A DNA stretch of 64,000 nucleotides. Origin: an uncultured Candidatus Saccharibacteria bacterium. GTDB lineage: Bacteria; Patescibacteriota; Minisyncoccia; Phycocordibacterales; UBA2100. Made by a program: the position numbers and the translations under genes. Below the pieces are notes generated by a model. The model had not been told where the DNA came from. It worked only from the letters and a program-made list of their open reading frames with translations, and made no database searches. Location of the stretch: the NCBI GenBank assembly GCA_964512835.1, contig CAZELA010000003.1:152098-216097 (forward strand). Reading direction: 5' to 3'. How positions within the stretch are numbered: position 1 is the stretch's first letter; every line of letters begins with the position of its first letter. Shown here piece by piece: positions 33,823 to 63,656 of this stretch.

Positions 33823-33842
33823 TTGCTCACGCAGTCACATCA

Positions 33843-33872: not shown

Positions 33873-33886
33873 GCTACTGTGAATAC

Positions 33887-35368
33887 ATGCTCACGCGTAT
33901 CGCGGTGGCCGGCGTCATCGGGTTCCTTGCAGGAGTGTGGTACGCATCGGTTATTCCGGTAGCAGTACCCGTTGTCATGGCGCTCCTGCTGTGCGCATGT
34001 GTGTTTTTGTTTGTGTCGTGGAAAGTGCCGCACGACCGCAGAGCGCTCCCGGTTGTTGTGTGTTTGTGTGCGGCAGTATGCGGAATGGCTCGCCTTGAGC
34101 TTGCACGGCTGCACCCGACGCCTGACCTCTCAGCGCGACTCAATACCACAGTCCGTCTTGAGGGAACGATCATCGCCGAGCCCGACGTCCGCGAACGCAG
34201 CACTCGCTTGTTTATGGACGTTACCGCCGTCGATGGCGTGCCTGCGGCACTGAGAGTTCTCGTGAACGCCCCCTCATTCTCGCGAACTACATACGGCGAC
34301 CGTATTTCGGTTGCGGGAACACTCCGTGAGCCGGAACCGTTCGAAAGCGGTGAAGGTCGTGCGTTCAACTATCCGATGTTCCTCGCGGTACGGGGCGTCT
34401 CATACGAAGTTGCCTTTGCAGAGATTGCCGTCGTGGGGCACGGGGGTAACCCGCTCATCACGGGCGCATTGGTCGTGAAGGCAGCGTATATCCACGGACT
34501 GCAGTCTGTGTTGCCCGAACCGTATGCGGGGTTGGCAGCGGGCATCACGGCGGGCGATAAGCGGTCGGTCGGAGTCGAGTTGTCGGAAACATTCCGCCGT
34601 GTCTCGCTTGTTCATATTCTCGTACTGTCCGGCTATAACATCACGGTCGTGATGAGTGTGCTTATGCGGCTGAACACCGGCATGTCTCGATTCGGTAGGC
34701 TTGCGGTCGCGTTGCTCACTATCATCTTTTTCATACTGATTTCCGGTGGGGCAGCGAGTTCGGTACGTGCGGGTGCGATGGCGTTTGCGGCGGCATTCGC
34801 GAATCAGTTCGGCAGGCAATTCGTGGCGTTGCGCGTGCTCGCTGCGGTCGTGCTGGCGATGGTCATCTGGAACCCGCTCATCCTCGCATTCGATCCGGGA
34901 TTCCAATTATCAGTTCTGGCCACGCTTGGACTTGTGCTGTTCGGTAACGACCTCAGCGGATATCTACGTGGTGTGACAGAACACTTTGCGCTGCGTGAAA
35001 TACTCGCATCGTCGATCGCAACGCAAGTCGCCGTGCTTCCGCTTTTGCTCTATCAAAACGGACTCCTTAGTTTGGTGGCTTTGCCTGCTAATATTTTCGC
35101 GCTCGTCGCAGTGCCGCTTGCAATGGCATTCTCCGCGATCGCAGCGTGTATCGGTATCGTACTCGGGACGTGGGGGACCGTTCTTGCGCTTCCGGCGTTC
35201 ATGCTGCTGCGATACATCGTGTTTGTTGCCGAAACCTTGGCGCGACTGCCGTTTGCTACCGTTACAATACCTGCGTTTAACGCGTATATACTTTTTCTCG
35301 TGTACGGATGTCTCGCGTGCGCCGCGTACATGTGTCACCGTCTCTCCATAATCAAAACGACCCCGTAA
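33887..35368 (+). CDS. comEC: ComEC/Rec2 N-terminal part (DUF4131 plus competence channel domain)
   Basis: Polytopic membrane protein with the competence-domain motif HILVLSGYNITVV; the track ORF start at 33653 overlaps the upstream gene and terminator, so start refined to MLTRIAVAG. Confidence 0.75.
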   Translation: MLTRIAVAGVIGFLAGVWYASVIPVAVPVVMALLLCACVFLFVSWKVPHDRRALPVVVCLCAAVCGMARLELARLHPTPDLSARLNTTVRLEGTIIAEPDVRERSTRLFMDVTAVDGVPAALRVLVNAPSFSRTTYGDRISVAGTLREPEPFESGEGRAFNYPMFLAVRGVSYEVAFAEIAVVGHGGNPLITGALVVKAAYIHGLQSVLPEPYAGLAAGITAGDKRSVGVELSETFRRVSLVHILVLSGYNITVVMSVLMRLNTGMSRFGRLAVALLTIIFFILISGGAASSVRAGAMAFAAAFANQFGRQFVALRVLAAVVLAMVIWNPLILAFDPGFQLSVLATLGLVLFGNDLSGYLRGVTEHFALREILASSIATQVAVLPLLLYQNGLLSLVALPANIFALVAVPLAMAFSAIAACIGIVLGTWGTVLALPAFMLLRYIVFVAETLARLPFATVTIPAFNAYILFLVYGCLACAAYMCHRLSIIKTTP

Positions 35369-47342: not shown

Positions 47343-47415
47343 TTTCAAGGGATTCTTTACACAAAACCCCGCGCATGCGGGGTTTTGTCGTGTATGGGTG
47401 TGCGACAATATTCCC

Positions 47416-48318
47416 ATGAACCCAAAAACGCGTATTGCCGCCCTTGTTTGTGCGATTATCGCGCTCGCGGCCCCGCTCTCGGCTGCCGCATCGACATGTC
47501 CCGCGCTCTATCGATCGCTGTCGCGTAATGCCGAAGGGAGCGATGTGCGCGAACTCCAGCAGTTCCTGGCAGACTGGGGAGTGCTTGAGCGCGCCTTTGT
47601 GATCGGCATATTCGGACTCAAGACCGAGCGAGCCGTCCAGGCATTTCAGGTACAACAGGGCATCGTGAGCGTGGGAACTCCGGCGACGACCGGCTTTGGT
47701 GGGGTCGGGGGCAAGACTCGCGCCCGTATCGCGGCAGTCTGCGCAGCGGGTCCGTCGCAAAACGGGGGAAATAGTCAGCAAACAAGCCGTCCGTCGAGTG
47801 TAAATATCGTTATTCCGACAGGGACGATGCCGGTGCAGACCGGCCCGATCGTAACGGCCAAAACGGCGAAAGCACCCACGATCGAACTCGGGACCGTCGC
47901 CGTCGATAAGGTTATGGTCAATTTCTACGGGATTCCGCCGCTGAGCATTATGTTCATGATTGACCCGGTGACCGGAAAGCGAGTCGAAATGGGAGGCTAC
48001 AGTCCGCTGGATATCGGAGGCAGCGGCTACGTTACGTACCCGATGCTCGGTGAATTTGCGGGAAATACCTATGCGTTTGTCATACAAGCCAGTTCAACTA
48101 AGCAGAGCTGGGCCACATCGACATCATTTACCGTACCAAAGCCGACCGCTCAGGACGAGGTCGGCGTGTTTACGCTCTACGACGGACAGGTTTTGATCTA
48201 CTCAACCACAAACGTAACCAAAAGCAGCGCGACAGCTCGATGCAAGTCCGAAAAGTCTTCGTACCCCGCACGTAACACACAGTGCACGTTCAACGGCTAC
48301 ACGATATTCGTGCAGTAG
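47416..48318 (+). CDS. secreted protein with peptidoglycan-binding-like domain
   Basis: Signal peptide then a PG_binding_1-like segment (GSDVRELQQFLADWG...GLKTERAVQAFQ). Confidence 0.55.
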   Translation: MNPKTRIAALVCAIIALAAPLSAAASTCPALYRSLSRNAEGSDVRELQQFLADWGVLERAFVIGIFGLKTERAVQAFQVQQGIVSVGTPATTGFGGVGGKTRARIAAVCAAGPSQNGGNSQQTSRPSSVNIVIPTGTMPVQTGPIVTAKTAKAPTIELGTVAVDKVMVNFYGIPPLSIMFMIDPVTGKRVEMGGYSPLDIGGSGYVTYPMLGEFAGNTYAFVIQASSTKQSWATSTSFTVPKPTAQDEVGVFTLYDGQVLIYSTTNVTKSSATARCKSEKSSYPARNTQCTFNGYTIFVQ

Positions 48319-48437
48319 AGTTATCCACATCAATCGGTCGCGGGCACGTTGCATAGCGATTGTTCGTGCAATACTACGCATACCACTTTCTCTCTAGTGG
48401 TGCGGTTTTCCTTTTATAGGGTAAGCACATTAGAGAG

Positions 48438-50843
48438 ATGTCTAAAAAAATTGTTTCGGGTGCGGTTGCACTTTTCATGATGGTCGTCCCGATGAGCGCA
48501 GCCGCGCTCTCGATGCCGGATCAGTTCATGCTGCCGCAATTGCCGCAGAATCCGACCGTACAGGATCTGCAGGCGTATGTAATCCGACTCACGTCTCTCG
48601 TCACGGAGCTCATTGCCCGTAACGCGCAGACTCCGATACCGCCGGTCATGACGGATCGGATCAGCTGCCCGGTCTACATGCCGGCACTCTGCGCCTCGAA
48701 CGAGCATCTTGTGGGCGGTACCTACCTGCAGAACGGCTGTCAAGGTGCGCCGCGCTGCGTGCCGAATTCAGACACTGCCGCTACGGTCGCGCTCAGTGTT
48801 TCACCCGCCTTAGGAACCGCACCGCTCAGTGTTCTTGCAACCGTCAGTAATTTGGGAAGCTCGAACAAATATTCTATCGACTTCGGTGATGGTGCGGGCG
48901 GTGTGATCTGTAACCAGGAGTCCGGCGGCGTTTCAAACTGCGGAAGTTCATGGAGTGGCTCGTATGTGTATCAGTTTCCGGGAACGTATGTTGTCAAAGT
49001 TTCGCAAGTGCCCGGTCCGACTGACGGCAATTGTGTCGGGACGGATTGTTGGGTGCGCGCGAGCGCGCGCGTAGTAGTGACCGGCGGCTCGACGCCCACG
49101 AGCGGATCGTCGCGCGTTACGTTCGGGTCAATATCCGGTCGCACTGTCTCGTACTCATTCGCAAGTCTGCCGGCCAATACACAGCTCATATTTGTAAATC
49201 AAACCAACGGAGACCGTATCTACTCCGTTTCTGCAATCGCATCGGGAAGCGGCGAAGGTGCGATGACTCTGCCCGACAATGCGACCGCCGGGGCGTATGT
49301 TGTGCGCGCGCAGAGTTACGGAACCGGCGTGTATGTAGCACAGACGGTACCGTTCACGTTGTCGGGCACGACGGAGGGCTGCGTAGCACCGACAATCACC
49401 ATGCCTGCTGCCGGATACTCACTCGCAATCAGCATGGCCGGTCAGGGACAGCAGATCGCTGCAACAGGCAACCCGCAGCTTTCGGTAACGTCGCTCCCGT
49501 GGGCAACGCTCGCAGGCTCAGTGCTTACATTCAACTCACTTCCGGTTGCCGGGACCTATCCCATCGTGATCACGGCAACGAATCCCTGTGGAACTGCCAC
49601 GCGCACGTTTAATGTAATCGTGCCGCAGGCGGTGAGCGTATGTCCCGTCTATACGATCCCGCTCTGCCCCGAAGGACAGTCGATGGTGCACGAACTCACC
49701 ACGCGAGATGCAAACAACTGCGAAGTTCCTCACTGGCACTGCACAATAAGCCCGATCGCAAAGGGTACATGTACCTACTCACAAGGCAGCTCGAGGTTCG
49801 GAGATAAGGCCACGGTTGCAAAAGCGCCGGTTTCGATCCAAATCGAAGGCGGTCAGGCTGCATGCAGCGCGTGGTGCTTGTCGCAGGGTGTAATGGCGTA
49901 TTCGTATTACACCTGTGCCTACAATGGGTCCACGGTCTCGATGTCGGACAGCGCATCAAATGTTTCGAACATCGCATACGAAGGTGAACAGCAGAATACG
50001 GGCACCGTTGCGGGCGTATCGGTCTCGCTTGATCAGGAGACGTTCACTGCCGATCAGCGAGCTCAGGTGGCAGGTGCGCTTGAATCGCTCGAAGGAATCG
50101 TGAAATGGATACTCGCATACTTCCGACCGGCAGCTTCGGGTGATGTGGCGGTCACGTCTACGACCACCGCTCCGGTACCAGATGTTCCGAAAGAGAATCG
50201 GCCGATGACGGCGCCGTCCCTCCCGGTGCAGCAGGCTCCGACACCCACGACAACGTCGTCGGGCGCGGGCGCACAAGTGGTCGGCTCGTCGAGCACCAAC
50301 ACGAACGTGCCGGCAAAGGGGACACTGCGCGCCTCGTTCAAAGGAGTCGCATTACCCGATGTGCCGAACGTAACAAAACGTATTGCCGAGGCGCTGTGTC
50401 GCGCGGAGGCCGTGTGCACATGGAACTACGAGCCGATCACCGCGATCCCGACGTTTGGTCAGCCCGGGGACCCTACGATCACGCTTTCTAAACCGGTTGC
50501 CGGTTCGAACGAAAAAGTGGAGTTGGGCGGCACCTATACATTCGTGCTCAAAGACACATCGAACACCTCCGGCGCTGTACCGGCCGGCATGTATCGTGTG
50601 TATCTTGCAAAGGTAACGACGCGCAACGGACCGGATTTGATTTATCAGGGCGAGATCACGAGTGCAAAGCGAAACGCTGCGGGTGACATCGAACTGACGT
50701 GGTCCACACATACTCAGCGACAGACCGCATACTCGCTTGTATCGGATCTGATTCCTGCCGGTTTGTATTACGTGGGTGCGGTCAATATTACGAACGGCCT
50801 CAAGGGTTCGTCGTCGGGTTCACTCACACTGCTTGTTCAATAA
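48438..50843 (+). CDS. large secreted protein with PKD/Ig-like repeats and Cys-rich segments
   Basis: Signal peptide, PKD-like LSVSPALGTAPLSV, repeated CPVY-x-LC Cys-rich modules, and Ser/Thr/Gly-rich beta-type composition. Confidence 0.55.
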   Translation: MSKKIVSGAVALFMMVVPMSAAALSMPDQFMLPQLPQNPTVQDLQAYVIRLTSLVTELIARNAQTPIPPVMTDRISCPVYMPALCASNEHLVGGTYLQNGCQGAPRCVPNSDTAATVALSVSPALGTAPLSVLATVSNLGSSNKYSIDFGDGAGGVICNQESGGVSNCGSSWSGSYVYQFPGTYVVKVSQVPGPTDGNCVGTDCWVRASARVVVTGGSTPTSGSSRVTFGSISGRTVSYSFASLPANTQLIFVNQTNGDRIYSVSAIASGSGEGAMTLPDNATAGAYVVRAQSYGTGVYVAQTVPFTLSGTTEGCVAPTITMPAAGYSLAISMAGQGQQIAATGNPQLSVTSLPWATLAGSVLTFNSLPVAGTYPIVITATNPCGTATRTFNVIVPQAVSVCPVYTIPLCPEGQSMVHELTTRDANNCEVPHWHCTISPIAKGTCTYSQGSSRFGDKATVAKAPVSIQIEGGQAACSAWCLSQGVMAYSYYTCAYNGSTVSMSDSASNVSNIAYEGEQQNTGTVAGVSVSLDQETFTADQRAQVAGALESLEGIVKWILAYFRPAASGDVAVTSTTTAPVPDVPKENRPMTAPSLPVQQAPTPTTTSSGAGAQVVGSSSTNTNVPAKGTLRASFKGVALPDVPNVTKRIAEALCRAEAVCTWNYEPITAIPTFGQPGDPTITLSKPVAGSNEKVELGGTYTFVLKDTSNTSGAVPAGMYRVYLAKVTTRNGPDLIYQGEITSAKRNAAGDIELTWSTHTQRQTAYSLVSDLIPAGLYYVGAVNITNGLKGSSSGSLTLLVQ

Positions 50844-50945
50844 CAGGAGCGAACACGCATCAAAGGCCGCCTCATGGGCGGCTTTTGCATTGAGATGTCA
50901 ACAGCCACCGCTTAGATATTCATATGAAGGCTTTACAATAGAGAG

Positions 50946-51437
50946 GTGAATCACTCTATCGGCCGTCAGGTGGTCGTACTCATTGTTCTTGTCCTCCTTT
51001 TGATCGCTGTAGGAATTTTTTCATCCCTCACCAACGGTATTCATCCGCGCGGATTTTCTGATGCAGATACTGCGCAACAAGTACCGCCCCCACCGCCCCG
51101 AACCGAACATATGGAAAAGGTATTGAGCGAGAGCAGGGGATTTTCGCAGTTCGTTTCGTATACCGATAACGGCTTTGAACCTGCCGACGTTACGGTGAGC
51201 AAGGGCGAGACCGTGCGGTTCACCAACAACTCTGCGCACGATCTATGGATCATGGCGAGCGGAGGCGACGGCGGCGTGTACCCGGCAACAGGAAACAACT
51301 GCGGTCAGAGCGATTTTGATACATGCATCGCGCTCCCGCCGAACGAGATCTGGGAGTTCACGTTTACTGCGGCGGGTACGTGGGTGTATCGCAACAATGT
51401 CGAAAAAGAACACGTCGGTGTCATCCGCGTGAAATAA
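50946..51437 (+). CDS. putative cupredoxin-like domain protein (membrane-anchored)
   Basis: N-terminal TM helix, PPPPP linker, then TVRFTNNSAHDLWI...WEFTF...GTWVY...HVGVIRV resembling a cupredoxin fold; GTG start, so start uncertain. Confidence 0.4.
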   Translation: MNHSIGRQVVVLIVLVLLLIAVGIFSSLTNGIHPRGFSDADTAQQVPPPPPRTEHMEKVLSESRGFSQFVSYTDNGFEPADVTVSKGETVRFTNNSAHDLWIMASGGDGGVYPATGNNCGQSDFDTCIALPPNEIWEFTFTAAGTWVYRNNVEKEHVGVIRVK

Positions 51438-51439
51438 CT

Positions 51440-54073
51440 ATGCATCATCACTCAAAACGGGAGCGATACACGGCATGGATCGCGCGGGCCATCATTGCCA
51501 CGTCGATCTTTGTAACGATGCTCTACGTGTTCGACGGCAAGCTCGATCTGTTCACGAGCGCGCCAAATCCGGAATTTGCCGATGCCACACCGTCGGGCAT
51601 GTTGGTTGTACCCGCCTCCGGCGCGAGTCAGAGCTCATATACGGGCAGCTACACGGCTACGTACACGGGCACCTACACGGGCTCGTATGTGCCGCCCACA
51701 CCGACAGGCCTTACGCTCACCTGCGATGCCGCTGGTACCACGGGCACGATCGCGTGGACGAGCGCACCGGGAGCAACCAGCTACTTGGTGCGCGCCGACG
51801 ACGGAGCTTCGCCGTGGACGCCGTCGCGCTGCGACGGTACCGTGAACGACACGGGTGCGGGCGACTACTGCTGGCCGGCTGCCGCAACAAATCCAAAAAC
51901 ATTTACCACACAGGCCGGGCACAGCTACACGGTGTGGGTGCACTCGAACAATGCTGCCGGATACAACACGACTCCGGCACAGGGAACACTCACCTGCTCG
52001 GCAATGCCGTCGTGCACCGTGAACATCTCGCCGAATCCGCTTGCACGCGGCGGCAGCGCAACAGTCACGTGGTCTTCGCAGAACGCATCGAGCATGACGC
52101 TTGCAACCATCGGGCCGGTGGCGACGGCCGGCTCTTCGAGCGTGTCTCCGACGGTTACTACCAGTTACGGCGGCACGGTGTCCAACACCACTCAAAACAT
52201 TTCATACGGGGCTAATGTTCGTGTCGTGCTTGGCTCAGGATCATCATGGTCAGTTCCTGCGGACTGGAACAACTCGAACAACGTGATCGAGTGCATCGGC
52301 GGCGGTGCAGGCGGCAGCCGTGGTGCAGCAGGCGGAGGCGGCGCGTACTCGCGAGCCACCAATGCTGTGCTTCCGATGGGCCGCACTGTTGCGTACAACA
52401 TCGGCACAGCGGGTGTCGGATGGGGTTACGGAGGTCCGACGAACGGCGGCGCAACGTACTTTGGTGCATATTACTGCTACGCGCAGGGTGGTTACGTGGG
52501 CGGCGATCTCTCGTTGACGGGTGGCACAGGCGGACAGTCGTCCGGATATGGCAATGTGAATTATGTCGGCGGAAACGGCGGCGGCGCATCAAACGTCTGG
52601 GACGGTATCCGCACATTCAACGGCGGTGGCGGCGGTGGTGCAGGAGGACCGAACGGTAACGGCTACAGCGGTGCATCCGGTGTCGCGGCGAGCGTCGGCG
52701 GTAATGGCGGATACGGTGGTGCCGGTTACGGTGGCGGTGGCGGTGGCGGCGGAGGATTTACCTACTACTGGGCTTACACATACGGTGGCACCGGCGGAAC
52801 CGCGTATAACGGTGCTGAATGGTCGTCTGCCGGATCCGGCGGCGGAGGCGGCGGAGGTGGTGGCGGTTACTACGGCGGCGCAGGCGGTCACGGCGGCTAC
52901 TACGGCGGTGGTGGAGGCGGTGGCGCGCAGGGCTATGCAGTCGACGGCTACGGAGGCTACGGCCGACAGGGTGTTGTGGTAATCACGTACCAGCCGATCA
53001 TCTACACTCCGCAAAACAATACGGCTACATGCCCCGCAACACTTACGGTACAAACTCCGACTGCCGCACTCACACTTGCGGGCGGTGTCTCATCACAAAC
53101 GGTGAACGTGGGTCAGCAGTCGACCTGGACGTGGTCGTCAACATTCGGCAATACCTACACAACAATCGTGACGCTTGATCAGGCCGATGCGTGCGGTAAC
53201 GGCGTTGGACCCATCACATGGCCGTACGGTACGAGCGCGAGCGGCAACTACACTGCGACGTGGCAGGCCTGCACCGCAGGACGCACGTACAACTATAGTT
53301 ATCGCGTCACGAATTCTGCGGGCTACATTGCAACCGCACCGACCGCGTCGGTCACCGTTCGACCGCTCCCGTCGTGCACGCTCACACCGACCCCGGCAAC
53401 CATCGTTCGCGGTGGTAGTGCTGCACTCGCCTGGACCTCGGCAAACAGCACATCAGGCTCGATTGCGCCGGGAGGCACGAACATGTCGCCGCTTGCAAGC
53501 GGACAGGTATCTGTTGCCCCGACCGTTACGACCACGTACACAGGATCGGTGACGGGTGCAGGTGGTGCAGGCAGCTGCCAGACCACGGTGAACGTAACGT
53601 GTGCACCGATCTATCAGTGCTCCGGCCAGCAGATCACGTATACCGACAGTAACTGCAATACAACGAACCTCAATGGCGGCGTTGCCTGCGCAGCACCGTC
53701 GTACTGCCAGGCAGGTCAGGCGGTCTGTATAAACCCGCCGCCGTCATTCACTGCCGGCACCACTGCAGGCGGCACGCCGACCACCGGTGACTTGGAAGCG
53801 AATCCGCAGCTCGTGCGAAAGGGAACATCGGCAAAGCTGTACTGGAACGTATCGAATGTGGCGAGCTGCACCGTAACGGGTAACAACGGCGAAACGCTGG
53901 CTTCGGGCTGCACCGGCTCGGTCTGCACCTCGGGTAGCGCAGGTCGCACGACTGCGGCGATCAACTCGAGCGTGATTTACTCGCTCCGCTGCAATGCGCT
54001 CTCGGGCGTGACGCCGTCGTCGTTCAATCACACGGTAACGGTGCTGCCGTCGCCGGAATACGAAGAGAAATAA
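51440..54073 (+). CDS. giant secreted glycine-rich protein (877 aa)
   Basis: Signal anchor, Ig/fibronectin-like Thr/Ser-rich domains, and a ~300-aa central region of GGxGG/GYGG repeats ending GYGRQGVVVITYQP; alternative-frame ORFs across it are high-GC artefacts. Confidence 0.55.
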   Translation: MHHHSKRERYTAWIARAIIATSIFVTMLYVFDGKLDLFTSAPNPEFADATPSGMLVVPASGASQSSYTGSYTATYTGTYTGSYVPPTPTGLTLTCDAAGTTGTIAWTSAPGATSYLVRADDGASPWTPSRCDGTVNDTGAGDYCWPAAATNPKTFTTQAGHSYTVWVHSNNAAGYNTTPAQGTLTCSAMPSCTVNISPNPLARGGSATVTWSSQNASSMTLATIGPVATAGSSSVSPTVTTSYGGTVSNTTQNISYGANVRVVLGSGSSWSVPADWNNSNNVIECIGGGAGGSRGAAGGGGAYSRATNAVLPMGRTVAYNIGTAGVGWGYGGPTNGGATYFGAYYCYAQGGYVGGDLSLTGGTGGQSSGYGNVNYVGGNGGGASNVWDGIRTFNGGGGGGAGGPNGNGYSGASGVAASVGGNGGYGGAGYGGGGGGGGGFTYYWAYTYGGTGGTAYNGAEWSSAGSGGGGGGGGGGYYGGAGGHGGYYGGGGGGGAQGYAVDGYGGYGRQGVVVITYQPIIYTPQNNTATCPATLTVQTPTAALTLAGGVSSQTVNVGQQSTWTWSSTFGNTYTTIVTLDQADACGNGVGPITWPYGTSASGNYTATWQACTAGRTYNYSYRVTNSAGYIATAPTASVTVRPLPSCTLTPTPATIVRGGSAALAWTSANSTSGSIAPGGTNMSPLASGQVSVAPTVTTTYTGSVTGAGGAGSCQTTVNVTCAPIYQCSGQQITYTDSNCNTTNLNGGVACAAPSYCQAGQAVCINPPPSFTAGTTAGGTPTTGDLEANPQLVRKGTSAKLYWNVSNVASCTVTGNNGETLASGCTGSVCTSGSAGRTTAAINSSVIYSLRCNALSGVTPSSFNHTVTVLPSPEYEEK

Positions 54074-54321: not shown

Positions 54322-55521
<1,200 letters not shown>

Positions 55522-55555
55522 TCCAAGCCAACTCGGTTTCTCTCCAGAAACCAAA

Positions 55556-55586
55556 GAAAACCCCGGCCCAAAGCCGGGGTTTTCTA
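55556..55586. terminator. bidirectional terminator shared by tuf and the reverse transcriptase gene
   Basis: AAAACCCCGGCC-CAAA-GCCGGGGTTTTCT. Confidence 0.7.
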
Positions 55587-57041
55587 GTTGTTCTTAAATG
55601 CTACTTTGCGCGATTTACCGCGAATCTTCTCTCTGAGTTTTCGGGCATTTTTTACCGTTTTTATCTGCTCTTTAACCTCTGGGGCACTCAATTTTGACGC
55701 AACCACTCGTGAGTAGGCTAGGAAATTTTTCTTAGCGACACCGTACTTTGTATGTAAGTACTTTTTCGGCGCACCACTGCGCTTTTTCCTTGCAGCATTC
55801 TTCACTGATTTCTTCACCGCCTTATTCATCCTTCTCTGAAACTTCGCAATTGCGGCGTGACGTAGATAAACCTTCTGCCCGTCGGTCTGGATGCCAAGGT
55901 ATTGAACCGTTGCCTTCTTCATTGTTTCGGGATTTAGAATAGCCAAGCGCTCTTCAGTTCCGATGCAGTCGCGTCTTTCTGTTTTTTCCTTTTTTATAAC
56001 CAAAGCCTGCTCCTTTATCGCCTCGTATACGAAGTTCACAATTTGTGCAGCGTTCTGCGGCGAACACACAATCAGGATGTCGTCCGAGTATCGCCGATAG
56101 AGTCCATTTATCTTTCTCACGGCGGTTGCTACGGCGGCATCAAAGTCGAGCATGTACATGTTGGCCAATACACAACTAATAGGCGACCCCTGAGGAATTC
56201 CTTTGCTTTCCTTGTGAATCTCCTGTAAATGCTTTGAAATCACTTCGCGTTTGTATTCGGGGGCTGTAAATATTCGTGACCGACGTTTTTTCATGGCCTC
56301 ATCGGCGAACTTACGAATTCGTCCTTTTCGGACAAATGTAAAATTTGTGACCGCTCTAAAAACCTTGTAGTGGTCTTCAGGTAGTCGTTCATACCCCATT
56401 ATCTGACTCCATTTTGATTTAAGTTTACTGTGATCAATCTCCTCGAAGAATTTTGAGACATCTATCGCCAGAACACTACACGGTGCGTGAGCATCAATGA
56501 ACGCGAAAACTTCTCCTGCGAAATCAGCGTTACTTTTTCCTCTACCCGTCACAGGGCTCTTGATGCTTCTGTAAGCAATGACAGCATCACTCAGGTTCAT
56601 TTCGGAAAGTATCTTTTCGTAGCGTTCTGAAAGTTGCGCCGCGTACCATGAAAACACAAGCGCATCCTTGTGCGACGAAAAATCAATGGGTCTCTTTTTT
56701 ACAAAAATCTCACGTTTGCGCGCACCGGACTTCCTATTTTTTGGACGTCTGTAGCGACGGTCTCGTGTATCGATACGAATAAACGGGTAGAAGGAGTGAC
56801 GGGATACCGAATCCGGTGACAACATAGATTTCGTAATGTCTTCCTTCAGTCGAGATATCCGACTATCAAAATGCAAATATGTCCGCTTCGGTGGACGGTC
56901 TTGCCCGTCCCCGTTTAGTTTTTTTGATTCATTTACAAACCAACTGCTCCACCGGTCATTTTCCATATTCAAAGTAGACCCAACACCCCCTGGGTTCCTG
57001 GTACCTCGGGTTTTATCCCGTTGGCAGGGGTGTGGGCGCAA
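55584..57041 (-). CDS. free-standing reverse transcriptase (RNA-directed DNA polymerase), unclassified family
   Basis: RT motifs: LAIDVSKFFEEIDH (motif 2), GIPQGSPISCVLANMYM (motif 4, QGxxxSP), YRRYSDDILIVC (motif 5, YxDD), QYLGIQTDG (motif 7); highly basic C-terminal tail; start codon uncertain (first Met of the ORF given). Confidence 0.85.
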   Translation of the reverse strand: MRPHPCQRDKTRGTRNPGGVGSTLNMENDRWSSWFVNESKKLNGDGQDRPPKRTYLHFDSRISRLKEDITKSMLSPDSVSRHSFYPFIRIDTRDRRYRRPKNRKSGARKREIFVKKRPIDFSSHKDALVFSWYAAQLSERYEKILSEMNLSDAVIAYRSIKSPVTGRGKSNADFAGEVFAFIDAHAPCSVLAIDVSKFFEEIDHSKLKSKWSQIMGYERLPEDHYKVFRAVTNFTFVRKGRIRKFADEAMKKRRSRIFTAPEYKREVISKHLQEIHKESKGIPQGSPISCVLANMYMLDFDAAVATAVRKINGLYRRYSDDILIVCSPQNAAQIVNFVYEAIKEQALVIKKEKTERRDCIGTEERLAILNPETMKKATVQYLGIQTDGQKVYLRHAAIAKFQRRMNKAVKKSVKNAARKKRSGAPKKYLHTKYGVAKKNFLAYSRVVASKLSAPEVKEQIKTVKNARKLREKIRGKSRKVAFKNN

Positions 57042-57738
57042 ATCCGCGAGCGACTTTTTGGGGTCGGTACCGTCAGTGACGGCCAGGACTTAATTACCAT
57101 CAAGTTATCATTAACATTATGAACATGACTGAGTACATCATCGCGATTGCGGTGAATGCATGTGGCCTGCTCCTAATGATGCTAGGTGCCAGTTCCTGTG
57201 AATTGACATCAAGTAACTTAGTTCCCCATAGCCTATGCCATGGGGGCTCGCGGTATTAGCGTATTAACGCCAGAGGTATTCTACGCCTACCTGACAACGG
57301 GTCAATCAATCGTTGATACGCGCAATCGAGCACTCAGCACATTTCGTGTCGTTATCGTCGATGTTCCCGACAATGTTGCCGCCCGACTGCTGCATGTGCT
57401 TGAGACACAAGGCAACCCGGTGCCCGTTAGTTTCGACTATGTACTTTGCAGGATACATGACGGCCATAGAGTGCATTATATAGGGAATTGGGGTCAGTCC
57501 CCACATATCTCGTCGTTGCTACGACTCGCAAGCAGGGCCCGTCTCGCTATCCCATGCGCCGTCGCGCACGGGCCCCAAGCTCCGATCGAGTTTTGTCTTG
57601 TATCGAGCAGTGTTCGCTACAAGCGGAAAACTCCTCCAGAAACGAGAAACGTGTGGTGAAAACAAAAACCCCGGCATCGCTGCTGGGGTTTGACGGACCA
57701 AATGCAAATTGGCACTGTGTGCGTGGGAGGATACCAGC
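57042..57738 (-). ncRNA. candidate structured non-coding region upstream of the RT
   Basis: ~700 bp with no convincing CDS; AT-rich promoter-like stretch at 57100-57240; contains copy A of a 200-bp structured element (57488-57690) with hairpins GGGGTCAGTCCCC and GGGCCCGT...ACGGGCCC. Confidence 0.3.
57488..57690. repeat. 200-bp repeat element, copy A
   Basis: ~90% identical to 59537-59740; ends in the CTCCTCCAGAAACGAGAAACGTGTGG + GAAAACAAAAACCCCGG...CCGGGG module. Confidence 0.8.
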
Positions 57739-58125
57739 ATGACAAGAGCTCGGTACGAAAAGCCCACGTTCTCACATGTTTTTCTCGATAGCGACACGAT
57801 CACGGTTCGAAATAAGCTCGGCGTTGCGATAACGTTTTCGATCCAAACCGATATCCCGATCGAACGACACGATCAGATGCTCCGGAGTGTCCTCGTCGAC
57901 GGGTGGGGGAAAATGCAGCTCGTACTCCATGAGCCGTACTCTGCCCACGATGTTGCGCACGAACCTGCGAACCGGCGCGACAACGTTGTCGACGGAGGCT
58001 ACGACGCCAAGCTTATCAAGCAGTGGTTTGGTATCGAGTGGCACGAGTTCCAGTTGATGTACAACCATGCTCGGTTACAGATAGTCACTGCAATCGAAGA
58101 GCGCCTCAGTGCGCTCACAAAGTAA
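57739..58125 (+). CDS. hypothetical protein
   Basis: GGGAGG RBS, 128 aa, followed by a repeat-module terminator. Confidence 0.45.
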   Translation: MTRARYEKPTFSHVFLDSDTITVRNKLGVAITFSIQTDIPIERHDQMLRSVLVDGWGKMQLVLHEPYSAHDVAHEPANRRDNVVDGGYDAKLIKQWFGIEWHEFQLMYNHARLQIVTAIEERLSALTK

Positions 58126-58250
58126 AACTCCGGTCGTTAGGCCGGAGTTTTCTGCTTAGACCGAATCAATCCCTCCCGAAACGAGAAGCGTGTGGCCTGC
58201 CTGCGCAGGCAGGTGAAAACAAAAACCCCGGGCGTGCTAGGATTTTTGCA

Positions 58251-58553
58251 ATGAGGTGTCCTACGTTCTTGCGCGTACTAGCGGGTTTTGTCCTGAGTGG
58301 ATGCATCCTATACGTCTTTGTAGGCACGACTTCGGCCTTGGAAAGGGTCGGTCAAATTTTAGGGGGTGCAATACTGGTGCCGCTAGTGTTAATGCTTGCT
58401 ATGGGTATGACGTTTAGCTTTGCTAGACTATTGGACCGCCAGAACATCGGCACAATTGCAGCCGACTTTAAGTATTCGTTAGCGATATGGATTTTAGGCT
58501 TTGCTATATATGTACCCATCACTCTGTGGTTAGTAAGTATCTATGGCGAATAG
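58251..58553 (+). CDS. small membrane protein
   Basis: Three TM helices; start overlaps the end of a repeat module. Confidence 0.4.
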   Translation: MRCPTFLRVLAGFVLSGCILYVFVGTTSALERVGQILGGAILVPLVLMLAMGMTFSFARLLDRQNIGTIAADFKYSLAIWILGFAIYVPITLWLVSIYGE

Positions 58554-58839
58554 CGACATGCGTAATGGATGGTTCTGGATCCAGCGAACAACGATGTTTG
58601 TGGTTGCCACGGGTGCAAACCTTTCAACTTTGTTCATAGGCTTCGACCAGCCATGGCTGAATTTACCAGTGGTTGCACTGCTGTCGTATGCTTCGGGGCG
58701 AATGTTTCATCGCAAAACAGGTACTGCCTGGCGTACCGACTTGGTGTGGGCCGTTGGTTTAAGTTTTGTGGGACCCATCGCTCTCATTTTGGTGATGGCG
58801 GAAACCTACGGATGGGTGGAAATGTTCGGACTAGTTTGA
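58543..58839 (+). CDS. small membrane protein
   Basis: Start overlaps the previous gene stop (translational coupling); TM helices; ends at the repeat module at 58845. Confidence 0.4.
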   Translation: MANSDMRNGWFWIQRTTMFVVATGANLSTLFIGFDQPWLNLPVVALLSYASGRMFHRKTGTAWRTDLVWAVGLSFVGPIALILVMAETYGWVEMFGLV

Positions 58840-58844
58840 GGAAT

Positions 58845-58940
58845 TCACTCCTCCAGAAACGAGAAGCGTGTGGCTTGCCTCCTGCATGCGCAGGCAGATG
58901 AAAACAAAAACCCCGGCGCGATGGCCGGGGCTTTAAAATA
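58845..58940. repeat. repeat module / bidirectional terminator
   Basis: CTCCTCCAGAAACGAGAAGCGTGTGG + palindromic CCTGCATGCGCAGG + GAAAACAAAAACCCCGGCGCGATGGCCGGGG. Confidence 0.7.
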
Positions 58941-59514
58941 TCCGCTTTCGATAGACTGCCGCAATAAGCATTACGTTGACGACGAGTAGATATATTTGGA
59001 AGCTTGAATTCTCAATACTCCACACATGCATAGAGGGGAGCACTAGAAGCACGCTTACGAGCGAGGTTACATAAGTAAACCCTGTCTCGGTCTCTGGGAA
59101 CTTCCACGCCTTTACGATGGTGGGGAGTGCTGCAAAGAAGTCTCCGAGCGCCGCAAGAAGTATGGCGTATGTCGGGATGCCGACCACAAGCCAGAGAATG
59201 AGCGCGAGTATCGAGAATCCGCCGCAGGTGATATCAAAGGATGTCGCTTTCCAGAAACTCTTTCGATTCCAGAATGATGCAATAAATACGAGGAGTGGCA
59301 GGAATCCTGCGAGGAAGGTACGAATTGTTACCCACACATCAGCTCCTGCAGTGAGTGCTGCACCTGTACCAATGAGCGGTGCGAGTGCCCACAGTCCCCA
59401 AGAAATCCGATTGGGTTGAGTCGTGCCGCGAATGGTGTCCCGTACGTACGCGTATCCACCGATACAGCTTATGAGCGCGCTCAGTATCACCAGCCAGTGC
59501 TCAAAGCTCAGCAT
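58933..59514 (-). CDS. polytopic membrane protein
   Basis: Six predicted TM helices; start refined to MLSFEHW because the track N-terminus runs into repeat copy B. Confidence 0.5.
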   Translation of the reverse strand: MLSFEHWLVILSALISCIGGYAYVRDTIRGTTQPNRISWGLWALAPLIGTGAALTAGADVWVTIRTFLAGFLPLLVFIASFWNRKSFWKATSFDITCGGFSILALILWLVVGIPTYAILLAALGDFFAALPTIVKAWKFPETETGFTYVTSLVSVLLVLPSMHVWSIENSSFQIYLLVVNVMLIAAVYRKRIF

Positions 59515-59536
59515 GGTCAGATAGTAGCACTGGGGG

Positions 59537-59740
59537 ATGGGGTCAGTCCCCACATGGCTCGTCACTACTGCGACTCGCACGCAGGGCCCGTCTCGCTATC
59601 CCAAACGCCGTCGCATTTGGGCCCCAAGCTCCGACCGAGTTTTGTCTTGTATCGAGCAGTGCGCGCTACAAGCGGAAAACTCCTCCAGAGACGGAAAACG
59701 TGTGGTGAAAACAAAAACCCCGGTCGATTGGCCGGGGTCC
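59537..59740. repeat. 200-bp repeat element, copy B
   Basis: See copy A; the differences are not adenine-specific. Confidence 0.8.
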
Positions 59741-59757
59741 TGCTTTTGCGCAGGATG

Positions 59758-60279
59758 TTATGCGAGGAGCAGGGGGAAGTCTGAGACGCGTTTGTACACG
59801 CCTCTCCGCCATCGCGCAATGCTCTGGATGATTCCGTATAGCTCGATGAAGGTTTTCACCGCATCCTGCAGGCGAATCGCCACGAAGTCATCCGGTGCGC
59901 CACTGTTCGCTGGATTCATGAGAATCAGGTACTCCTCGTCGACGACGAGTCGCGAGAACACGGCGATCCGGTAGGAATTTGATACAGCGAGCGATTCCCA
60001 TCGTGGATTGTCCGGATTCACAATCTGCATCGCGGGGCCGACACCCATGAGTTTCGCGTACGCATCACGAAGTGATTCGCCGCGCTCTGGGGTCGGGATG
60101 AAAAAATACACGTGACCGCACAGCAGTTCGGTCGTGGCCGACAGCTTGTTGATTTCGTCCCACGGCGCCGTTGCGTTTGGGAAGCCTGTCATATCGTAAA
60201 GACCCCACCCCGTGCGCTTCACCGCGGAGCAGATTTCACCGCCATCCGGTAACACTGTTTCCTGAGCCAGTCGCAACAT
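59758..60279 (-). CDS. hypothetical protein
   Basis: GGAGGA RBS before MLRLAQ; repeat-module terminator downstream. Confidence 0.4.
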   Translation of the reverse strand: MLRLAQETVLPDGGEICSAVKRTGWGLYDMTGFPNATAPWDEINKLSATTELLCGHVYFFIPTPERGESLRDAYAKLMGVGPAMQIVNPDNPRWESLAVSNSYRIAVFSRLVVDEEYLILMNPANSGAPDDFVAIRLQDAVKTFIELYGIIQSIARWRRGVYKRVSDFPLLLA

Positions 60280-60317
60280 TCTGTCCTCCAAGGCGTTGTT
60301 CCCGCCAGCACCCTACA

Positions 60318-60410
60318 CCAAAATCCAGAGACGGAAAACGTGTTGCCTGCCTCCTGCATGCGCAGGCATGGCGCATTCAGAACCCCCCCCCGTCGATTGT
60401 TCGAGGGTTG
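60318..60410. repeat. repeat module (degenerate copy)
   Basis: CCAGAGACGGAAAACGTGTTGCCTGCCTCCTGCATGCGCAGGCA followed by a C-rich tract. Confidence 0.6.
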
Positions 60411-60466
60411 CACAAATCTTCAGTTCCCGTTAGGGTGACGCTCGGTTGCAACAGGGAGGACTCGAA

Positions 60467-60952
60467 ATGCTTACGATCAATCCGGTCAGGGATCGAGACG
60501 AGGCGCTCCGCCGCATCGAATCGCTCGACAATGCCCTCATAGGCTGCGGGCACGTGTGCGCGTGTCGCGCGCGGATGGCGCTCGTGATCACCGCCGAACA
60601 CATGACGCGGGTCGAGGCCGTGGTCGCAGAAGTGCGGTCCGGCACGTCCGCAGGCGGCATAGAAGCGCTCCGCGAGATCATCGGCGCCGATATCAATGAG
60701 GTGCAGGCCGAAGTGGCGCTGCGCATCGAGAACACGATGCAGCATCCCGACTACGTGCGCACCAAGAAGGGCGGGGGCATGGCCGCCGCCGAGCGCTCGC
60801 TCTCCGAGATGCTCGAGCAAGAACTCGACCCCACCGGGTATGCAGAGCGCCGGACGGAGCGACTGATGCACGCCATACTCAGCGGTGATCACTCGGCTCT
60901 GCCCGCGGGAATGCATGTCATTCAAATCGGCGGTCGAGGACCCCTGAACTAG
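60467..60952 (+). CDS. hypothetical protein
   Basis: GGGAGGA RBS; strong terminator hairpin at 60963-61000. Confidence 0.4.
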   Translation: MLTINPVRDRDEALRRIESLDNALIGCGHVCACRARMALVITAEHMTRVEAVVAEVRSGTSAGGIEALREIIGADINEVQAEVALRIENTMQHPDYVRTKKGGGMAAAERSLSEMLEQELDPTGYAERRTERLMHAILSGDHSALPAGMHVIQIGGRGPLN

Positions 60953-61052
60953 ATCGTTTCCAAGACGGCCACGCAGAGCACTGCGTGGCCGCATTGTTTT
61001 ACATAAAAACTCCGCCGGAACGGCCGGGACTTTGCCTTGCTACACTGGTGGC

Positions 61053-62114
61053 ATGAACGAGAAGTGGGGTGGGCTGCACAAAATGCGCGAGCGATTGCGC
61101 ACTGAGCGCGGTGTGGGTGGTCGCATTGCAGACGAGGACGAACAAGCGGGCCTGCGCGATGCAGCACTCGCAAAGTTCAAACTCAAGCAAGATCTGTTCC
61201 GACTCGAGCATTCAGAGCTCGCACAAAAGTTGGAGGGATGGCTCGGAGAAATTGATTTTGACGAACTCAATGAGATTTTTGCAGAGCAGCTGAGGCGCTC
61301 GGGTATCGACACCAGTCGTCTCAACCCGCTGTTTCGAGAAAATATTTACATGGACGGCGGCACCGATACTGCGACCATGTCGTATACCGGCTCCATCAAT
61401 GCCATACAGATTCATGCGAACGAATTTGAAGACTACGTCGCCCGTCAGAACACATCGAATGTCGATCCGCGCCTTATTTTTATGCAGCACCTCATACACG
61501 AGGGTGCTCATGCCGCCTCAGCCAATATAACGGTGATGAAGGACCAGGCGAGCGGCTTTGTGCAATTGTCCGATTCGGGGCTCAATCATCGTCACGTCAA
61601 TGCGGTACTGCAAGGCGACGATACGTTCTCCCTCGAGGAAAACAATGAGTTCCTCATGTTCAACGAGGGTGTGACCGAGCTTGTCGCCGATGAGGTGCTG
61701 TCCGAGTATCTGAAGCGTCGTCCGCTTGCCGGACTCTCAGGCGAGATTGCTAACAGCACATTCGATAATTTGGTGGGCACTCACTCCACCGAGGGAGTGG
61801 GTTATGCGACAGCTCGTCAGTTTGTGACTGCATTTGTGGATGCCATCGCGCGAGAGGTCGGTATTCCCGAAGATGTAGTGTGGTCGGCTTTGAAGCGACA
61901 GTATTTCCGTGGGGATTCGCTCGCAGAGAAAGAAACAAGTGATCTGCTCAACGAGAGTCTTGGCGAGATTTTCACCGAAATGCTGAGCGAGGCGGATACG
62001 GCGGGGTTCTTGCGAGCAATACGAAGAAGCTATCCAAAAATCACACTCACCAAAGATCAGGCGATCAATGCGTGGCTTGCTCACTTGCAGCTCAAGCGAG
62101 GGGGCTCAAGCTAA
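61053..62114 (+). CDS. hypothetical protein with HExxH motif (possible zinc metallopeptidase)
   Basis: HLIHEGAHA motif in a 354-aa ORF; no other recognisable domain. Confidence 0.4.
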   Translation: MNEKWGGLHKMRERLRTERGVGGRIADEDEQAGLRDAALAKFKLKQDLFRLEHSELAQKLEGWLGEIDFDELNEIFAEQLRRSGIDTSRLNPLFRENIYMDGGTDTATMSYTGSINAIQIHANEFEDYVARQNTSNVDPRLIFMQHLIHEGAHAASANITVMKDQASGFVQLSDSGLNHRHVNAVLQGDDTFSLEENNEFLMFNEGVTELVADEVLSEYLKRRPLAGLSGEIANSTFDNLVGTHSTEGVGYATARQFVTAFVDAIAREVGIPEDVVWSALKRQYFRGDSLAEKETSDLLNESLGEIFTEMLSEADTAGFLRAIRRSYPKITLTKDQAINAWLAHLQLKRGGSS

Positions 62115-62180
62115 ATCCTCCGGAAACGCACAACGTGTGGTGCAAGCAAAACCCCGCCGAGGACGGCGGGGCATAACGTT
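62113..62180. repeat. repeat module / bidirectional terminator
   Basis: CCTCCGGAAACGCACAACGTGTGGTGCAAGCAAAACCCCGCCGAGGACGGCGGGG. Confidence 0.6.
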
Positions 62181-62199
62181 TGCGGAAGGTGCGCGTCGC

Positions 62200-62598
62200 C
62201 TAGGCGGCGATCGTTCCGTTTGCGAACACGTGGATCACGGGTGAGAGCGACGGGTGCACCGCGATCTCGCGGTCGTACCGGCGCCGAAGTTCGCGGAGTT
62301 GCGTCTCGCCGGGGATGCGCACCACGTGGTACTTCTGCGAGCAGTACACGGGCTCGGAATGAGTCGTGCGCTCCGTGGTGCCGTCCAGGTAGGTCGTGAG
62401 CACGAAGCGCTCGATGTGAATGAAATCCACACGCGCACCGATCTCGTCGTGGGAGAGCGAGGCGATGATTTCTTCGTCGGTGCGGGTGTCGGCACCGAGC
62501 GGGTTGAATCCGCTCCGGCTACCGTCTGTCCACGAAACAACGCGGGCACCGGTCTCGGACTTGATGATGTCGATCTCAGTCAGGGGCAGCGTGCGCAT
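62200..62598 (-). CDS. hypothetical protein
   Basis: GGAGGA RBS before MRTLPL. Confidence 0.4.
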   Translation of the reverse strand: MRTLPLTEIDIIKSETGARVVSWTDGSRSGFNPLGADTRTDEEIIASLSHDEIGARVDFIHIERFVLTTYLDGTTERTTHSEPVYCSQKYHVVRIPGETQLRELRRRYDREIAVHPSLSPVIHVFANGTIAA

Positions 62599-62690
62599 TC
62601 GAAATCCTCCGGGGTTCAAAACTGATCCGCGAACACTATGCGTTATATCTGGGATTTGTCAAACAATCGGCGCTCCGGAAAGTCGGTCGT

Positions 62691-63086
62691 TTAGCCGACA
62701 AGCGCGACGGTAGCCACTGCAACGAGCGCCCACTGTGCGACCGTAAAGGCTGTTTCGATCACAAAGAAATTCGGCACCGACGTCATTCTGTGTTTTGCGC
62801 CCACGGCTACGGTTGTGTAGCTCCACGACAGCACCGCTCCGGCCACAAAGTACACAAGCCCGCGCGTTGTCGCATCCGCAAACATTGTCTGGATGAGGTG
62901 TATGTACACGTAGGAAAATATGACTGCCTGCGTTGCCATTGAGAGGAGGCCGAACGGAATGATGACGTCATCGCGATATATAGCGAGTGCCTTGTAGCGG
63001 GCATCAAAGAGCTTCAAGTGCCATACAAACCCGAGGATAAAGGTCGGAACAAGATACGCGGCGATCGATATATAGAGTGGTGTCAT
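62691..63086 (-). CDS. small polytopic membrane protein
   Basis: Four TM helices; the track N-terminal extension is antisense to the VOC gene and was trimmed to the ATG at 63086. Confidence 0.45.
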   Translation of the reverse strand: MTPLYISIAAYLVPTFILGFVWHLKLFDARYKALAIYRDDVIIPFGLLSMATQAVIFSYVYIHLIQTMFADATTRGLVYFVAGAVLSWSYTTVAVGAKHRMTSVPNFFVIETAFTVAQWALVAVATVALVG

Positions 63087-63200
63087 ATGCACAAGTATAC
63101 AGACGTCGGGGCGAGCGCTCCGCATCGCGGTTAGCGACCTGCCAGTGGCGTGGGTGTAGGATCGTTCACTGTGCCTGCATGGCGGCGCTATACTGGGGAA

Positions 63201-63587
63201 ATGACTCACATCAATCATGCATTCAGCGGGTTTTCGGTCAGTGACCTCGCGGCTGCAAAGGCGTTTTACGAGGAGGTGCTTGGTATTTCGGTGCGCGAGG
63301 AACCGGGCATGGGTATGAATCTCGTGCTCCCGGGCGGCGGCAACTTTTTTGTGTATCCGAAGGCAGATCATGTGCCCGCTACGTACACGACGCTTAATCT
63401 TGTCGTCGACAACATCGACGCGGCAGTCGACGAGCTCGTGGGGAGGGGCGTTACCTTTGAGCGGTACGACGGCATGCATCAGGATGACAAAGGTATCGCG
63501 CGAGGGATCGCCGCCAACATGGGGCCGGACATCGCGTGGTTCAAAGATCCCGCAGGCAATATCTTGTCGGTAATGCAGGAGAAATAG
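63201..63587 (+). CDS. glyoxalase/bleomycin-resistance (VOC) family protein
   Basis: VOC fold signatures (FSVSDLAAAKAFYEEVLG ... DPAGNIL). Confidence 0.7.
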   Translation: MTHINHAFSGFSVSDLAAAKAFYEEVLGISVREEPGMGMNLVLPGGGNFFVYPKADHVPATYTTLNLVVDNIDAAVDELVGRGVTFERYDGMHQDDKGIARGIAANMGPDIAWFKDPAGNILSVMQEK

Positions 63588-63656
63588 CATTACTGCTTCT
63601 GCAGATAGCAAAAACCCCGGCAGCGATGCCGGGGTTCGTTCGTGAGAACAGGGGAG

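Follow-up and report, generated by a model that had tools for sequence, protein, structure and literature searches.

Mosaic repeat modules in a strain-variable island downstream of tuf in a Patescibacteria bacterium, possible junctions of cassette exchange

The stretch of contig CAZELA010000003.1 analyzed here (64 kb, hereafter the window) derives from an uncultured, ultra-small, Kaiserbacteria-like bacterium of the candidate phyla radiation (CPR)/Patescibacteria; its tuf product has ~90% protein identity to that of Candidatus Kaiserbacteria. Its first 54 kb comprise housekeeping genes, including fusA, and tuf is followed by an island of genes pointing both ways, the first of which encodes a DRT2 (UG2) antiviral reverse transcriptase (RT). 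Six short repeats, here called modules 1 to 6, punctuate this island and are the subject of the present analysis. They are genuine copies of a mosaic noncoding module, the same module family recurs in RT-less versions of the island, and comparison of related strains indicates that gene cassettes are gained, lost, or swapped at the modules. CPR/Patescibacteria bacteria have tiny genomes with few recognized mobile elements, and little is understood of how they vary accessory and antiviral genes.

A search of the whole window with the core sequence CCAGARACGRRAARCGTGTGG, allowing up to three mismatches, returns exactly the six copies that a preliminary description of the locus had listed (Table 1), against a chance expectation of 0.01, and no shuffled sequence reaches six. 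The core, which contains a tandem heptamer (AGAAACG twice), is absent from the remainder of the window at this threshold. All six copies lie on the plus strand; the repeats had been described as occurring in both orientations, which proved to be true of the flanking genes only. Each module is made up of the core box, an optional palindrome, an A-tract (TGAAAACAAAAA), and a GC hairpin. The palindrome, placed in three copies by the preliminary description, is indeed found 3′ of the core in modules 2, 3, and 5, either as CCTGCCTGCGCAGGCAGG or as variants of CCTCCTGCATGCGCAGG, and both GAAAACAAAAACCCCGG and the A-tract with the half-stem TGAAAACAAAAACCCCGG are identical in copies 1-4. The terminal stem-loop is less uniform than the five copies out of six previously proposed: the exact form CCCCGG...C(C/T)GGGG closes three copies, module 6 carries a variant hairpin of its own along with the variant A-tract sequence GCAAGCAAAACCCCGCC, and two copies are degenerate, module 2 having lost the 3′ stem arm (CCCCGGGCGTGCTAGGATTTTT) and module 5 displaying a divergent hairpin. 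Read on the tuf strand, a full module runs through (G)TCAGTCC(C), an optional 140-nt body of a longer repeat termed D1, TCCAGAAACGAGAAAC, an optional hairpin H1, GTGTGG, an optional palindrome H2, the A-tract, and the GC hairpin H3, with the core, H1, H2, A-tract/H3, and D1 each present or absent independently across at least 15 modules of the window and its relatives. H3 consists of paired 8-bp inverted arms and a 4-nt spacer that is found in both orientations, and the short modules have one common left boundary.

Table 1. Coordinates of features in the island downstream of tuf (window positions)
Feature	Coordinates	Strand	Description and basis
Strain-variable region, start	55533		L030 alignment stops at 55532
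'Module 0', module-like tuf 3′ untranslated region	55535..55583	+	Hairpin GGTTTCT-CTCC-AGAAACC, A-tract, terminator
'Module 0', predicted bidirectional terminator			AAAACCCCGG...CCGGGGTTTT, common to tuf (+) and RT gene (-); terminator prediction
DRT2 (UG2) antiviral RT, first cassette gene	55584..56966	-	PADLOC, NCBIfam
Likely DRT2 noncoding RNA region and promoter	56967..57305	-	Promoter scan, fold z = -3.8, analogy with KpnDRT2
D1a body	57489..57635	-	Plus-strand 5′ part of 186-nt repeat, joined to module 1; structured
Module 1	57636..57688	+	Core 57636-57656; A-tract and hairpin CCCCGGCATCGCTGCTGGGG 57657-57688
Module 2	58175..58247	+	Core 58175-58195 (1 mismatch); perfect palindrome CCTGCCTGCGCAGGCAGG 58196-58213
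Module 2, end	58214-58247	+	A-tract and half hairpin, 3′ arm absent
Module 3	58853..58930	+	Core 58853-58873; palindrome 58874-58898; A-tract and hairpin 58899-58930
D1b body	59538..59684	-	Second copy of 186-nt repeat; directly upstream (minus) of 193-aa gene start, 59514
Module 4	59685..59737	+	Core 59685-59705; A-tract and hairpin 59706-59737
Module 5	60325..60409	+	Core 60325-60345 (GTGTTG); palindrome 60346-60380; divergent hairpin CCCGTCGATTGTTCGAGGG 60381-60409
Core-less junction	61005..61030	+	A-tract and hairpin AAAAACTCCGCCGGAACGGCCGGGAC, between 161-aa and 353-aa genes
Module 6	62120..62171	+	Divergent core 62120-62140 (3 mismatches); variant A-tract and hairpin 62141-62171
Orphan A-tract and hairpin, core-less	63604..63634	+	GATAGCAAAAACCCCGGCAGCGATGCCGGGG; same hairpin at module junctions of other haplotypes

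Inside the 64 kb, core, palindrome, and A-tract with stem are confined to the island, apart from the orphan A-tract and hairpin at 63604-63634. A profile hidden Markov model built from the long copies (D1 and module) has no match in window positions 1-55000 and recovers only the island copies and this orphan, and no module copy is present in ~30 kb of extra-island sequence from related contigs. Generic terminators at other window positions (12845, 32824, 47365, and 55558) are symmetric (AAAACCCCG...CGGGGTTTT) and lack the core. The earlier statement that the core is island-specific thus stands for the other 59 kb of the window and for these related contigs, on a basis of ~95 kb of lineage sequence. 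In 185,579 GTDB species genomes, scans with the exact core pattern returned four single matches, and JGI metagenome contigs yielded three, about the chance level in both cases and without A-tract or hairpin; the source genome is evidently outside both sets. The IMG/VR viral contigs contain no match to the core or to GTRTGGTGAAAACAAAAACCCC, and blastn searches with D1 gave no match in phages and a single 36-nt terminator-like match in plasmids. Rfam, at gathering and E-value thresholds, reports no match to module or D1, its only returns being tRNAs elsewhere and subthreshold terminator-like matches. On these results, the module family is lineage-restricted.

Contigs of the same and of related populations (L-numbers) were found via exact-protein look-ups. 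The arrangement of the window recurs in six independent contigs (L009 and L012-L016), at 99-100% identity and in different samples, and an assembly artefact was rejected on this ground. Of the eight structural differences between strains, five map to module or A-tract-hairpin sequence, by rough estimate about 5% of the region. A comparison of related strains for presence or absence of the cassette-like units had been proposed in the preliminary description. Module 5 is the breakpoint of three haplotype differences. L012 and L013 follow the window at 99.2-99.9% identity as far as 60343, a position inside core 5, and then continue with a different cassette, comprising GG-TGTAAACAAAAA-CCCCGGCATCGCTGCCGGGG followed by a different minus-strand gene. 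L037 spans this extra cassette (~850 bp, including a 79-aa gene), which lies between core 5 and the 161-aa cassette, and its sequence returns to that of the window where the latter begins. In addition, GTGTGG and TGAAAAC are separated in module 4 of L037 by the precise insertion of a 36-nt palindrome, and the core of this module is of the module-1 type, not of the type seen in module 4 of the window. Module 6 is kept in ~95%-identical strains. The 79-aa protein of L037 (607-846) is Cys-rich (...WYKCTFHNTKTQTPFIITNEECRQCICSPTCH...), occurs in some strains only, and has one exact match in a collection of 5.8 billion proteins.

In the RT-less haplotype (L030, L031, L032, and L034), the whole array between tuf and module 5 (55533-60388) is replaced by other genes, encoding an SDH-family protease, 291-, 186-, and 92-aa proteins, an HTH_Crp protein, and a homologue of the 193-aa protein of the window. 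This array comprises at least five modules in the same orientation as in the window, the long ones with hairpin H1 (e.g., CCCCATCGCAcaaaaTGCGAGGGG) between GAGAAAC and GTGTGG. A D1-like element is also present, as is, left of the 193-aa homologue, a degenerate module that contains H2. Modules flank the 193-aa gene in either of these unrelated arrays (73% nucleotide identity between the two copies), although its neighbors differ. L021 and the L030-type strains display a 929-bp insert at 61005-61015 that comprises a SET-domain gene and two more modules, and nested palindromes are seen in L021. In the more distant genome L035 (GCA_040959275.1), with 89% nucleotide identity in tuf, different genes follow tuf, including those of a CapP-like M78 peptidase and a nucleotidyltransferase, together with a D1-like element that contains a 22-nt block identical to the window and with GTATGG-TGAAAACAAAAACCCCGG. 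Modules of one family and one orientation are thus present in two RT-less versions of the island, independently of the RT. The module subelements are better conserved than the island genes, as illustrated by H2, 97% identical between haplotypes, and by the 22-nt D1 block. The crossover points vary, lying after GTGT, within the A-tract, or after H3. At least three unrelated gene sets, with (i) DRT2, (ii) the SDH-family protease and HTH_Crp protein, and (iii) the CapP-like M78 peptidase and nucleotidyltransferase, occupy this hot spot in close relatives, which suggests a defense/accessory island.

On the minus strand, the A-tract and H3 are predicted to form a rho-independent terminator, with the hallmark hairpin, T-run, and postgene placement all present. 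Only in this reading does the hairpin run into a good T-run (TTTTTGTTTTC; CCGGGGTTTTTGTTTTC), and the terminator scan places minus-strand terminators at 58934-58907 (module 3), 59741-59714 (module 4), 62172-62151 (module 6), and 55585-55555 (tuf/RT junction), each just past the stop codon of a minus-strand gene, namely the 193-aa, 173-aa, 132-aa, and RT genes, respectively. Modules 2 and 5, with degenerate hairpins, have no minus-strand gene to their right; module 5 of L037, with an intact hairpin, is followed by such a gene. A terminator of this kind would end the minus-strand gene to its right and insulate neighboring cassettes.

The 3′ untranslated region (UTR) of tuf shares with the modules the 10-mer CTCCAGAAAC, an A-tract, and a CCCCGG hairpin; the 10-mer occurs three times in the window (tuf UTR, modules 1 and 3) against 0.05 expected. 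The hairpin directly 3′ of the tuf stop codon covaries between haplotypes, with GGTTTCT/AGAAACC versus GGTTC/GAACC arms (window 55535-55552; L030 935-950; L035 11213-11228), which suggests that the structure of the UTR is conserved.

Copies 1 and 4 of the core form the 3′ ends of the 186-nt direct repeat D1 (D1a, 57489-57674; D1b, 59538-59723), whose copies are 90% identical and differ at 18-19 positions. Eight of these differences fall in a 9-bp hairpin (57551-57572 / 59600-59621), and a hairpin of 5 bp (57512-57525 / 59561-59574) accounts for four more. In the two hairpins every pair is retained through six changed pairs, and all three wobble positions read G.U on the minus strand and as an A.C mismatch on the plus strand; the sense strand of D1 is probably the one opposite to tuf, as far as a comparison of two sequences indicates. 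Fold z-scores range from -3.4 to -3.8, and diverged D1 copies are present in L030 (5931-6110) and L035 (12927-13056). The ends of D1 (GGGGTCAGTCC... and ...AAAAACCCCGG) are not inverted repeats, and its flanks (GGGAATT/TTTGACG and GGGGGAT/TCCTGCT) display no target-site duplication. Three other identities were considered and discarded: (i) for D1, a coding sequence, the reading frames being open in both copies and on both strands but with ~10 of ~62 codons changed and hence no sign of purifying selection; (ii) the template and variable repeats of a diversity-generating retroelement, the differences between D1a and D1b not being adenine-specific; and (iii) a remnant of a group II intron, for want of any domain V-like sequence or Rfam match.

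The explanation that we favor, with moderate confidence, is that the repeats are lineage-specific mosaic junction modules between one- or two-gene cassettes in a strain-variable, partly antiviral post-tuf island, serving both as terminators and as recombination substrates. Near-identical, directly oriented boxes of 20-60 bp between unrelated genes are natural places for DNA exchange. Exchange between modules of one chromosome, or between these and imported DNA, would delete, insert, or swap whole cassettes, gene conversion would homogenize the modules, and the ComEC/pilus competence system would supply donor DNA from related strains. The breakpoints in modules, the swapped core type in L037, and the conservation of the subelements fit recombination or gene conversion between modules. 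Such exchange would be either driven by homology or catalyzed by a recombinase. The preliminary description had proposed the boundaries of a recombination-based shuffling system; as a description, cassette boundaries are borne out by the module 5 breakpoints, the palindrome indel in module 4, the array replacement, and the 193-aa gene, whereas a dedicated system is not.

Several observations weigh against this explanation. Three of the eight strain differences (58076, 62674/62684, and 63136-63509) lie outside modules, and the right end of the extra L037 cassette, as well as both ends of the SET insert, display the A-tract and hairpin without a core, so that the core is not always the crossover point. 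The contigs come from metagenomes of mixed populations and show end states, not recombination events, and island specificity is read from ~95 kb only. The compensatory changes in D1 hint at a role as RNA, or as single-stranded DNA, that the explanation does not include. Homology-driven exchange alone also leaves unexplained why a module stands at nearly every junction and why all modules share one orientation, and a dedicated site-specific system therefore stays a live rival.

In such a system, the modules would be att sites, integron-like or of another att type, and circular cassettes would integrate serially at a site that goes back to the tuf 3′ UTR/terminator, with a hybrid module regenerated at every event and the recombinase encoded elsewhere; we consider this unlikely, if worth keeping in view. 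As in integron attC arrays, such as those of sedentary chromosomal integrons and clusters of attC sites lacking integron-integrases, short direct repeats separate one- or two-gene cassettes in a variable array, units are gained and lost at the repeats (the extra cassettes after core 5 in L012, L013, and L037; the SET insert), and one cassette, that of the 193-aa gene, retains its boundaries in two different arrays. The single orientation regardless of gene direction, with a module at nearly every junction in three haplotypes, and the beginning of the array right after tuf, with its module-like UTR, argue in the same direction, as do the architecture of H3, with its spacer in both orientations, and a Xer-type tyrosine recombinase at 1345-2304. 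However, no recombinase is encoded in or beside the island in any haplotype, the open reading frames (ORFs) of the island contain no integrase domain, and the Xer-like protein, the sole tyrosine recombinase of the window, lies 53 kb away and, with 130 bits, stays below the cutoff of 265 set for the integron-integrase model. Identity with attC was rejected, since a regular-expression test of 55400-62800 found no RYYYAAC...GTTRRRY (R''/R') pair on either strand and neither motif in any module; nor do the modules form one long imperfect palindrome, and neither intI nor an attI/Pc platform is present. Unlike integron arrays, the island has cassettes that point both ways and carry their own terminators, and the crossover has no fixed position. 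Islands at tRNA genes and the tycheposons of Prochlorococcus arise by serial integration at the 3′ end of a conserved gene and contain repeated att scars. The post-tuf island is similar in that a hypervariable region abuts a housekeeping gene whose 3′ end its direct repeats resemble, but its units are single genes, and the resemblance amounts to 10 nt and a generic hairpin, the UTR motif being half of the conserved local hairpin. In Acinetobacter pdif modules and in the arrays of integrative mobile elements exploiting Xer at dif, small gene modules are bounded by sites of a housekeeping tyrosine recombinase. Here, too, short sites bound small gene modules and a Xer-like gene is at hand in the window, but the core contains no 11-6-11 XerC/XerD-type site and no dyad symmetry (CCAGAAAC versus its reverse complement CCACACGT, 4/8), orientation does not alternate, and H3, although a dyad, has the 4-nt spacer of any terminator. 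A location at dif or the replication terminus was likewise discarded, GC skew staying positive across the island without a sign switch. A bolder version, distinctly unlikely in our judgment, would make the post-tuf array an undescribed cassette-capture system of CPR bacteria, in which the composite of core, A-tract, and hairpin, possibly folded from the minus strand, as the strand-specific pairing of D1 hints, is a new kind of recombination site used by a distant recombinase, e.g., the Xer-like one; if true, the array would parallel integrons in function, with unrelated sites, and would stockpile and exchange defense and accessory genes beside tuf.

The subelements might instead be selfish palindromic mini-elements that accumulate at terminators, where their marking of breakpoints would be incidental, repeats promoting recombination and assembly breaks; this, too, we regard as unlikely. 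The bacterial interspersed mosaic elements (BIMEs) and repetitive extragenic palindromes (REPs) of E. coli, the pneumococcal BOX elements, and the neisserial intergenic mosaic (NIME) and Correia elements number tens to hundreds of copies, scattered over the whole genome in either orientation. The modules resemble them in combining short palindromes with conserved boxes at gene ends, and in being hairpin-rich, terminator-like, and hot spots of rearrangement; H1, H2, H3, and D1 form a mosaic of independently present or absent palindromes, the 36-nt H2 indel between close strains is exact, H2 and H3 are far more alike between haplotypes than the adjacent genes, and palindromes are nested in L021. 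In contrast to BIME/REP and BOX elements, the modules occupy one island, in one orientation and at nearly every junction, and neither dispersal nor a second orientation was found in the lineage sequence examined, the generic terminators at 12845, 32824, and 47365 and the flanking contigs included. The window encodes no REP-associated tyrosine transposase or IS200-type transposase, and miniature inverted-repeat transposable elements (MITEs) were rejected, terminal inverted repeats and target-site duplications being absent around D1 and the modules alike. The REP/MITE-like character suggested by the preliminary description is thus retained for the BIME/BOX-like mosaic of short palindromes and lost for the rest. 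The module, in sum, is laid out like integron attC/att scars and composed like BIME/BOX, with the defining features of neither. It is rather improbable that the modules, especially the D1 form, are minus-strand regulatory RNAs, leaders, or protein-binding operators that co-regulate the island genes and are repeated for that shared function. This would account for the retained pairing, minus-strand G.U wobbles, and fold z-scores of D1, for the tandem heptamer of the core, and for the location of D1b, the L035 D1-like element, the module 5 core, and the L030 M_b core, each upstream of the start of a minus-strand gene; the L035 D1 block even coincides with a good promoter (TTGGGA-17-TGTAGAAT) directly before the CapP-like gene. 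However, a minus-strand promoter or leader would have no use at modules 3 and 6, situated between convergent genes, or at 2, M_a, and M_c, each located after a plus-strand gene. The promoter scan places none in the window modules, Rfam has no match, the covariation comes from two sequences, and the strain breakpoints are left unexplained. Effectively refuted is the proposal that the repeats belong to the DRT2 system, as copies of its noncoding RNA (ncRNA) template, as cDNA integration products, or, as previously suggested, as binding sites of an RT-associated factor. The RT gene adjoins the first full-length copy, and a common 3′ end with a shorter 5′ extent superficially recalls 5′-truncated retrocopies, yet the RT-less haplotypes carry the same modules, the locus of the closest RT relative retrieved (L005) carries none, and the short modules begin at one left boundary, not at random truncation points. 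The structured D1 element does resemble the DRT2 ncRNA in its proximity to the RT gene, but a DRT2 ncRNA is by definition one structured RNA that is co-transcribed with the RT and required by it, and the 281-nt KpnDRT2 ncRNA is single-copy and directly upstream of the RT (Tang et al. 2024, PMC11100668), whereas modules and D1 are multicopy. A sigma-70-like promoter (TTGACC-16-TAGAAT, minus strand, 57305-57278) is predicted ~300 nt ahead of the RT, and D1a starts ~180 nt beyond it; the intervening region, by analogy likely the DRT2 ncRNA, separates D1a from the RT and places D1 and the modules outside the DRT2 unit. A CRISPR array was also rejected, the spacing being 540-1800 bp with genes within the intervals.

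The locus is a compact post-tuf hot spot in which single genes are swapped between strains at a conserved noncoding module. Should the modules be merely terminators with short homology, this is ordinary repeat-mediated island plasticity; should a recombinase act on them, they would define a new cassette system and a marker for variable and defense genes in uncultured bacteria. In either case, the modules offer a testable handle on how CPR bacteria vary their accessory and defense genes.

The DRT2 RT is assigned by PADLOC (Drt2, E = 4.6e-127) and by NCBIfam (Drt2, 392 bits versus a cutoff of 390), and its gene has a GC content of 45%, compared with 56% for the genome. Homologues measure 451-459 aa and align over 97-100% of the 460-aa form, and the public gene call (413 aa) seems 47 codons short by comparison. 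A plus-strand frame, antisense to the putative DRT2 ncRNA, is open over 56836-57093 and could represent the 'neo' template. The eight non-RT proteins of the island have no family in Pfam, PADLOC, or NCBIfam; one of them, of 353 aa (61053-62114), contains an HExxH motif (HEGAH) and may be an unclassified metallopeptidase.

Beyond the island, the Xer-type tyrosine recombinase passes the NCBIfam XerA_Arch cutoff, and PilB/PilC, RecJ, and ComEC (18633-22386, 30425-32104, and 33695-35368) make up with it a set of DNA-uptake and recombination genes of the kind usual in CPR genomes. L021-type strains carry a 2.1-kb insertion at 62674/62684, with 232-aa, DM13-domain, and 150-aa genes and no module, and lack 374 bp (63136-63509, no module) of a glyoxalase/VOC-like gene (~63201-63587). 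Between fusA and tuf (47308-54073), the window encodes 336-, 801-, and 916-aa proteins, the last of which is Gly/Thr/Ser-rich; they are 69-75% identical to the counterpart region of L035, over short stretches only, and the fusA-side flank of tuf thus also appears to be fast-evolving.

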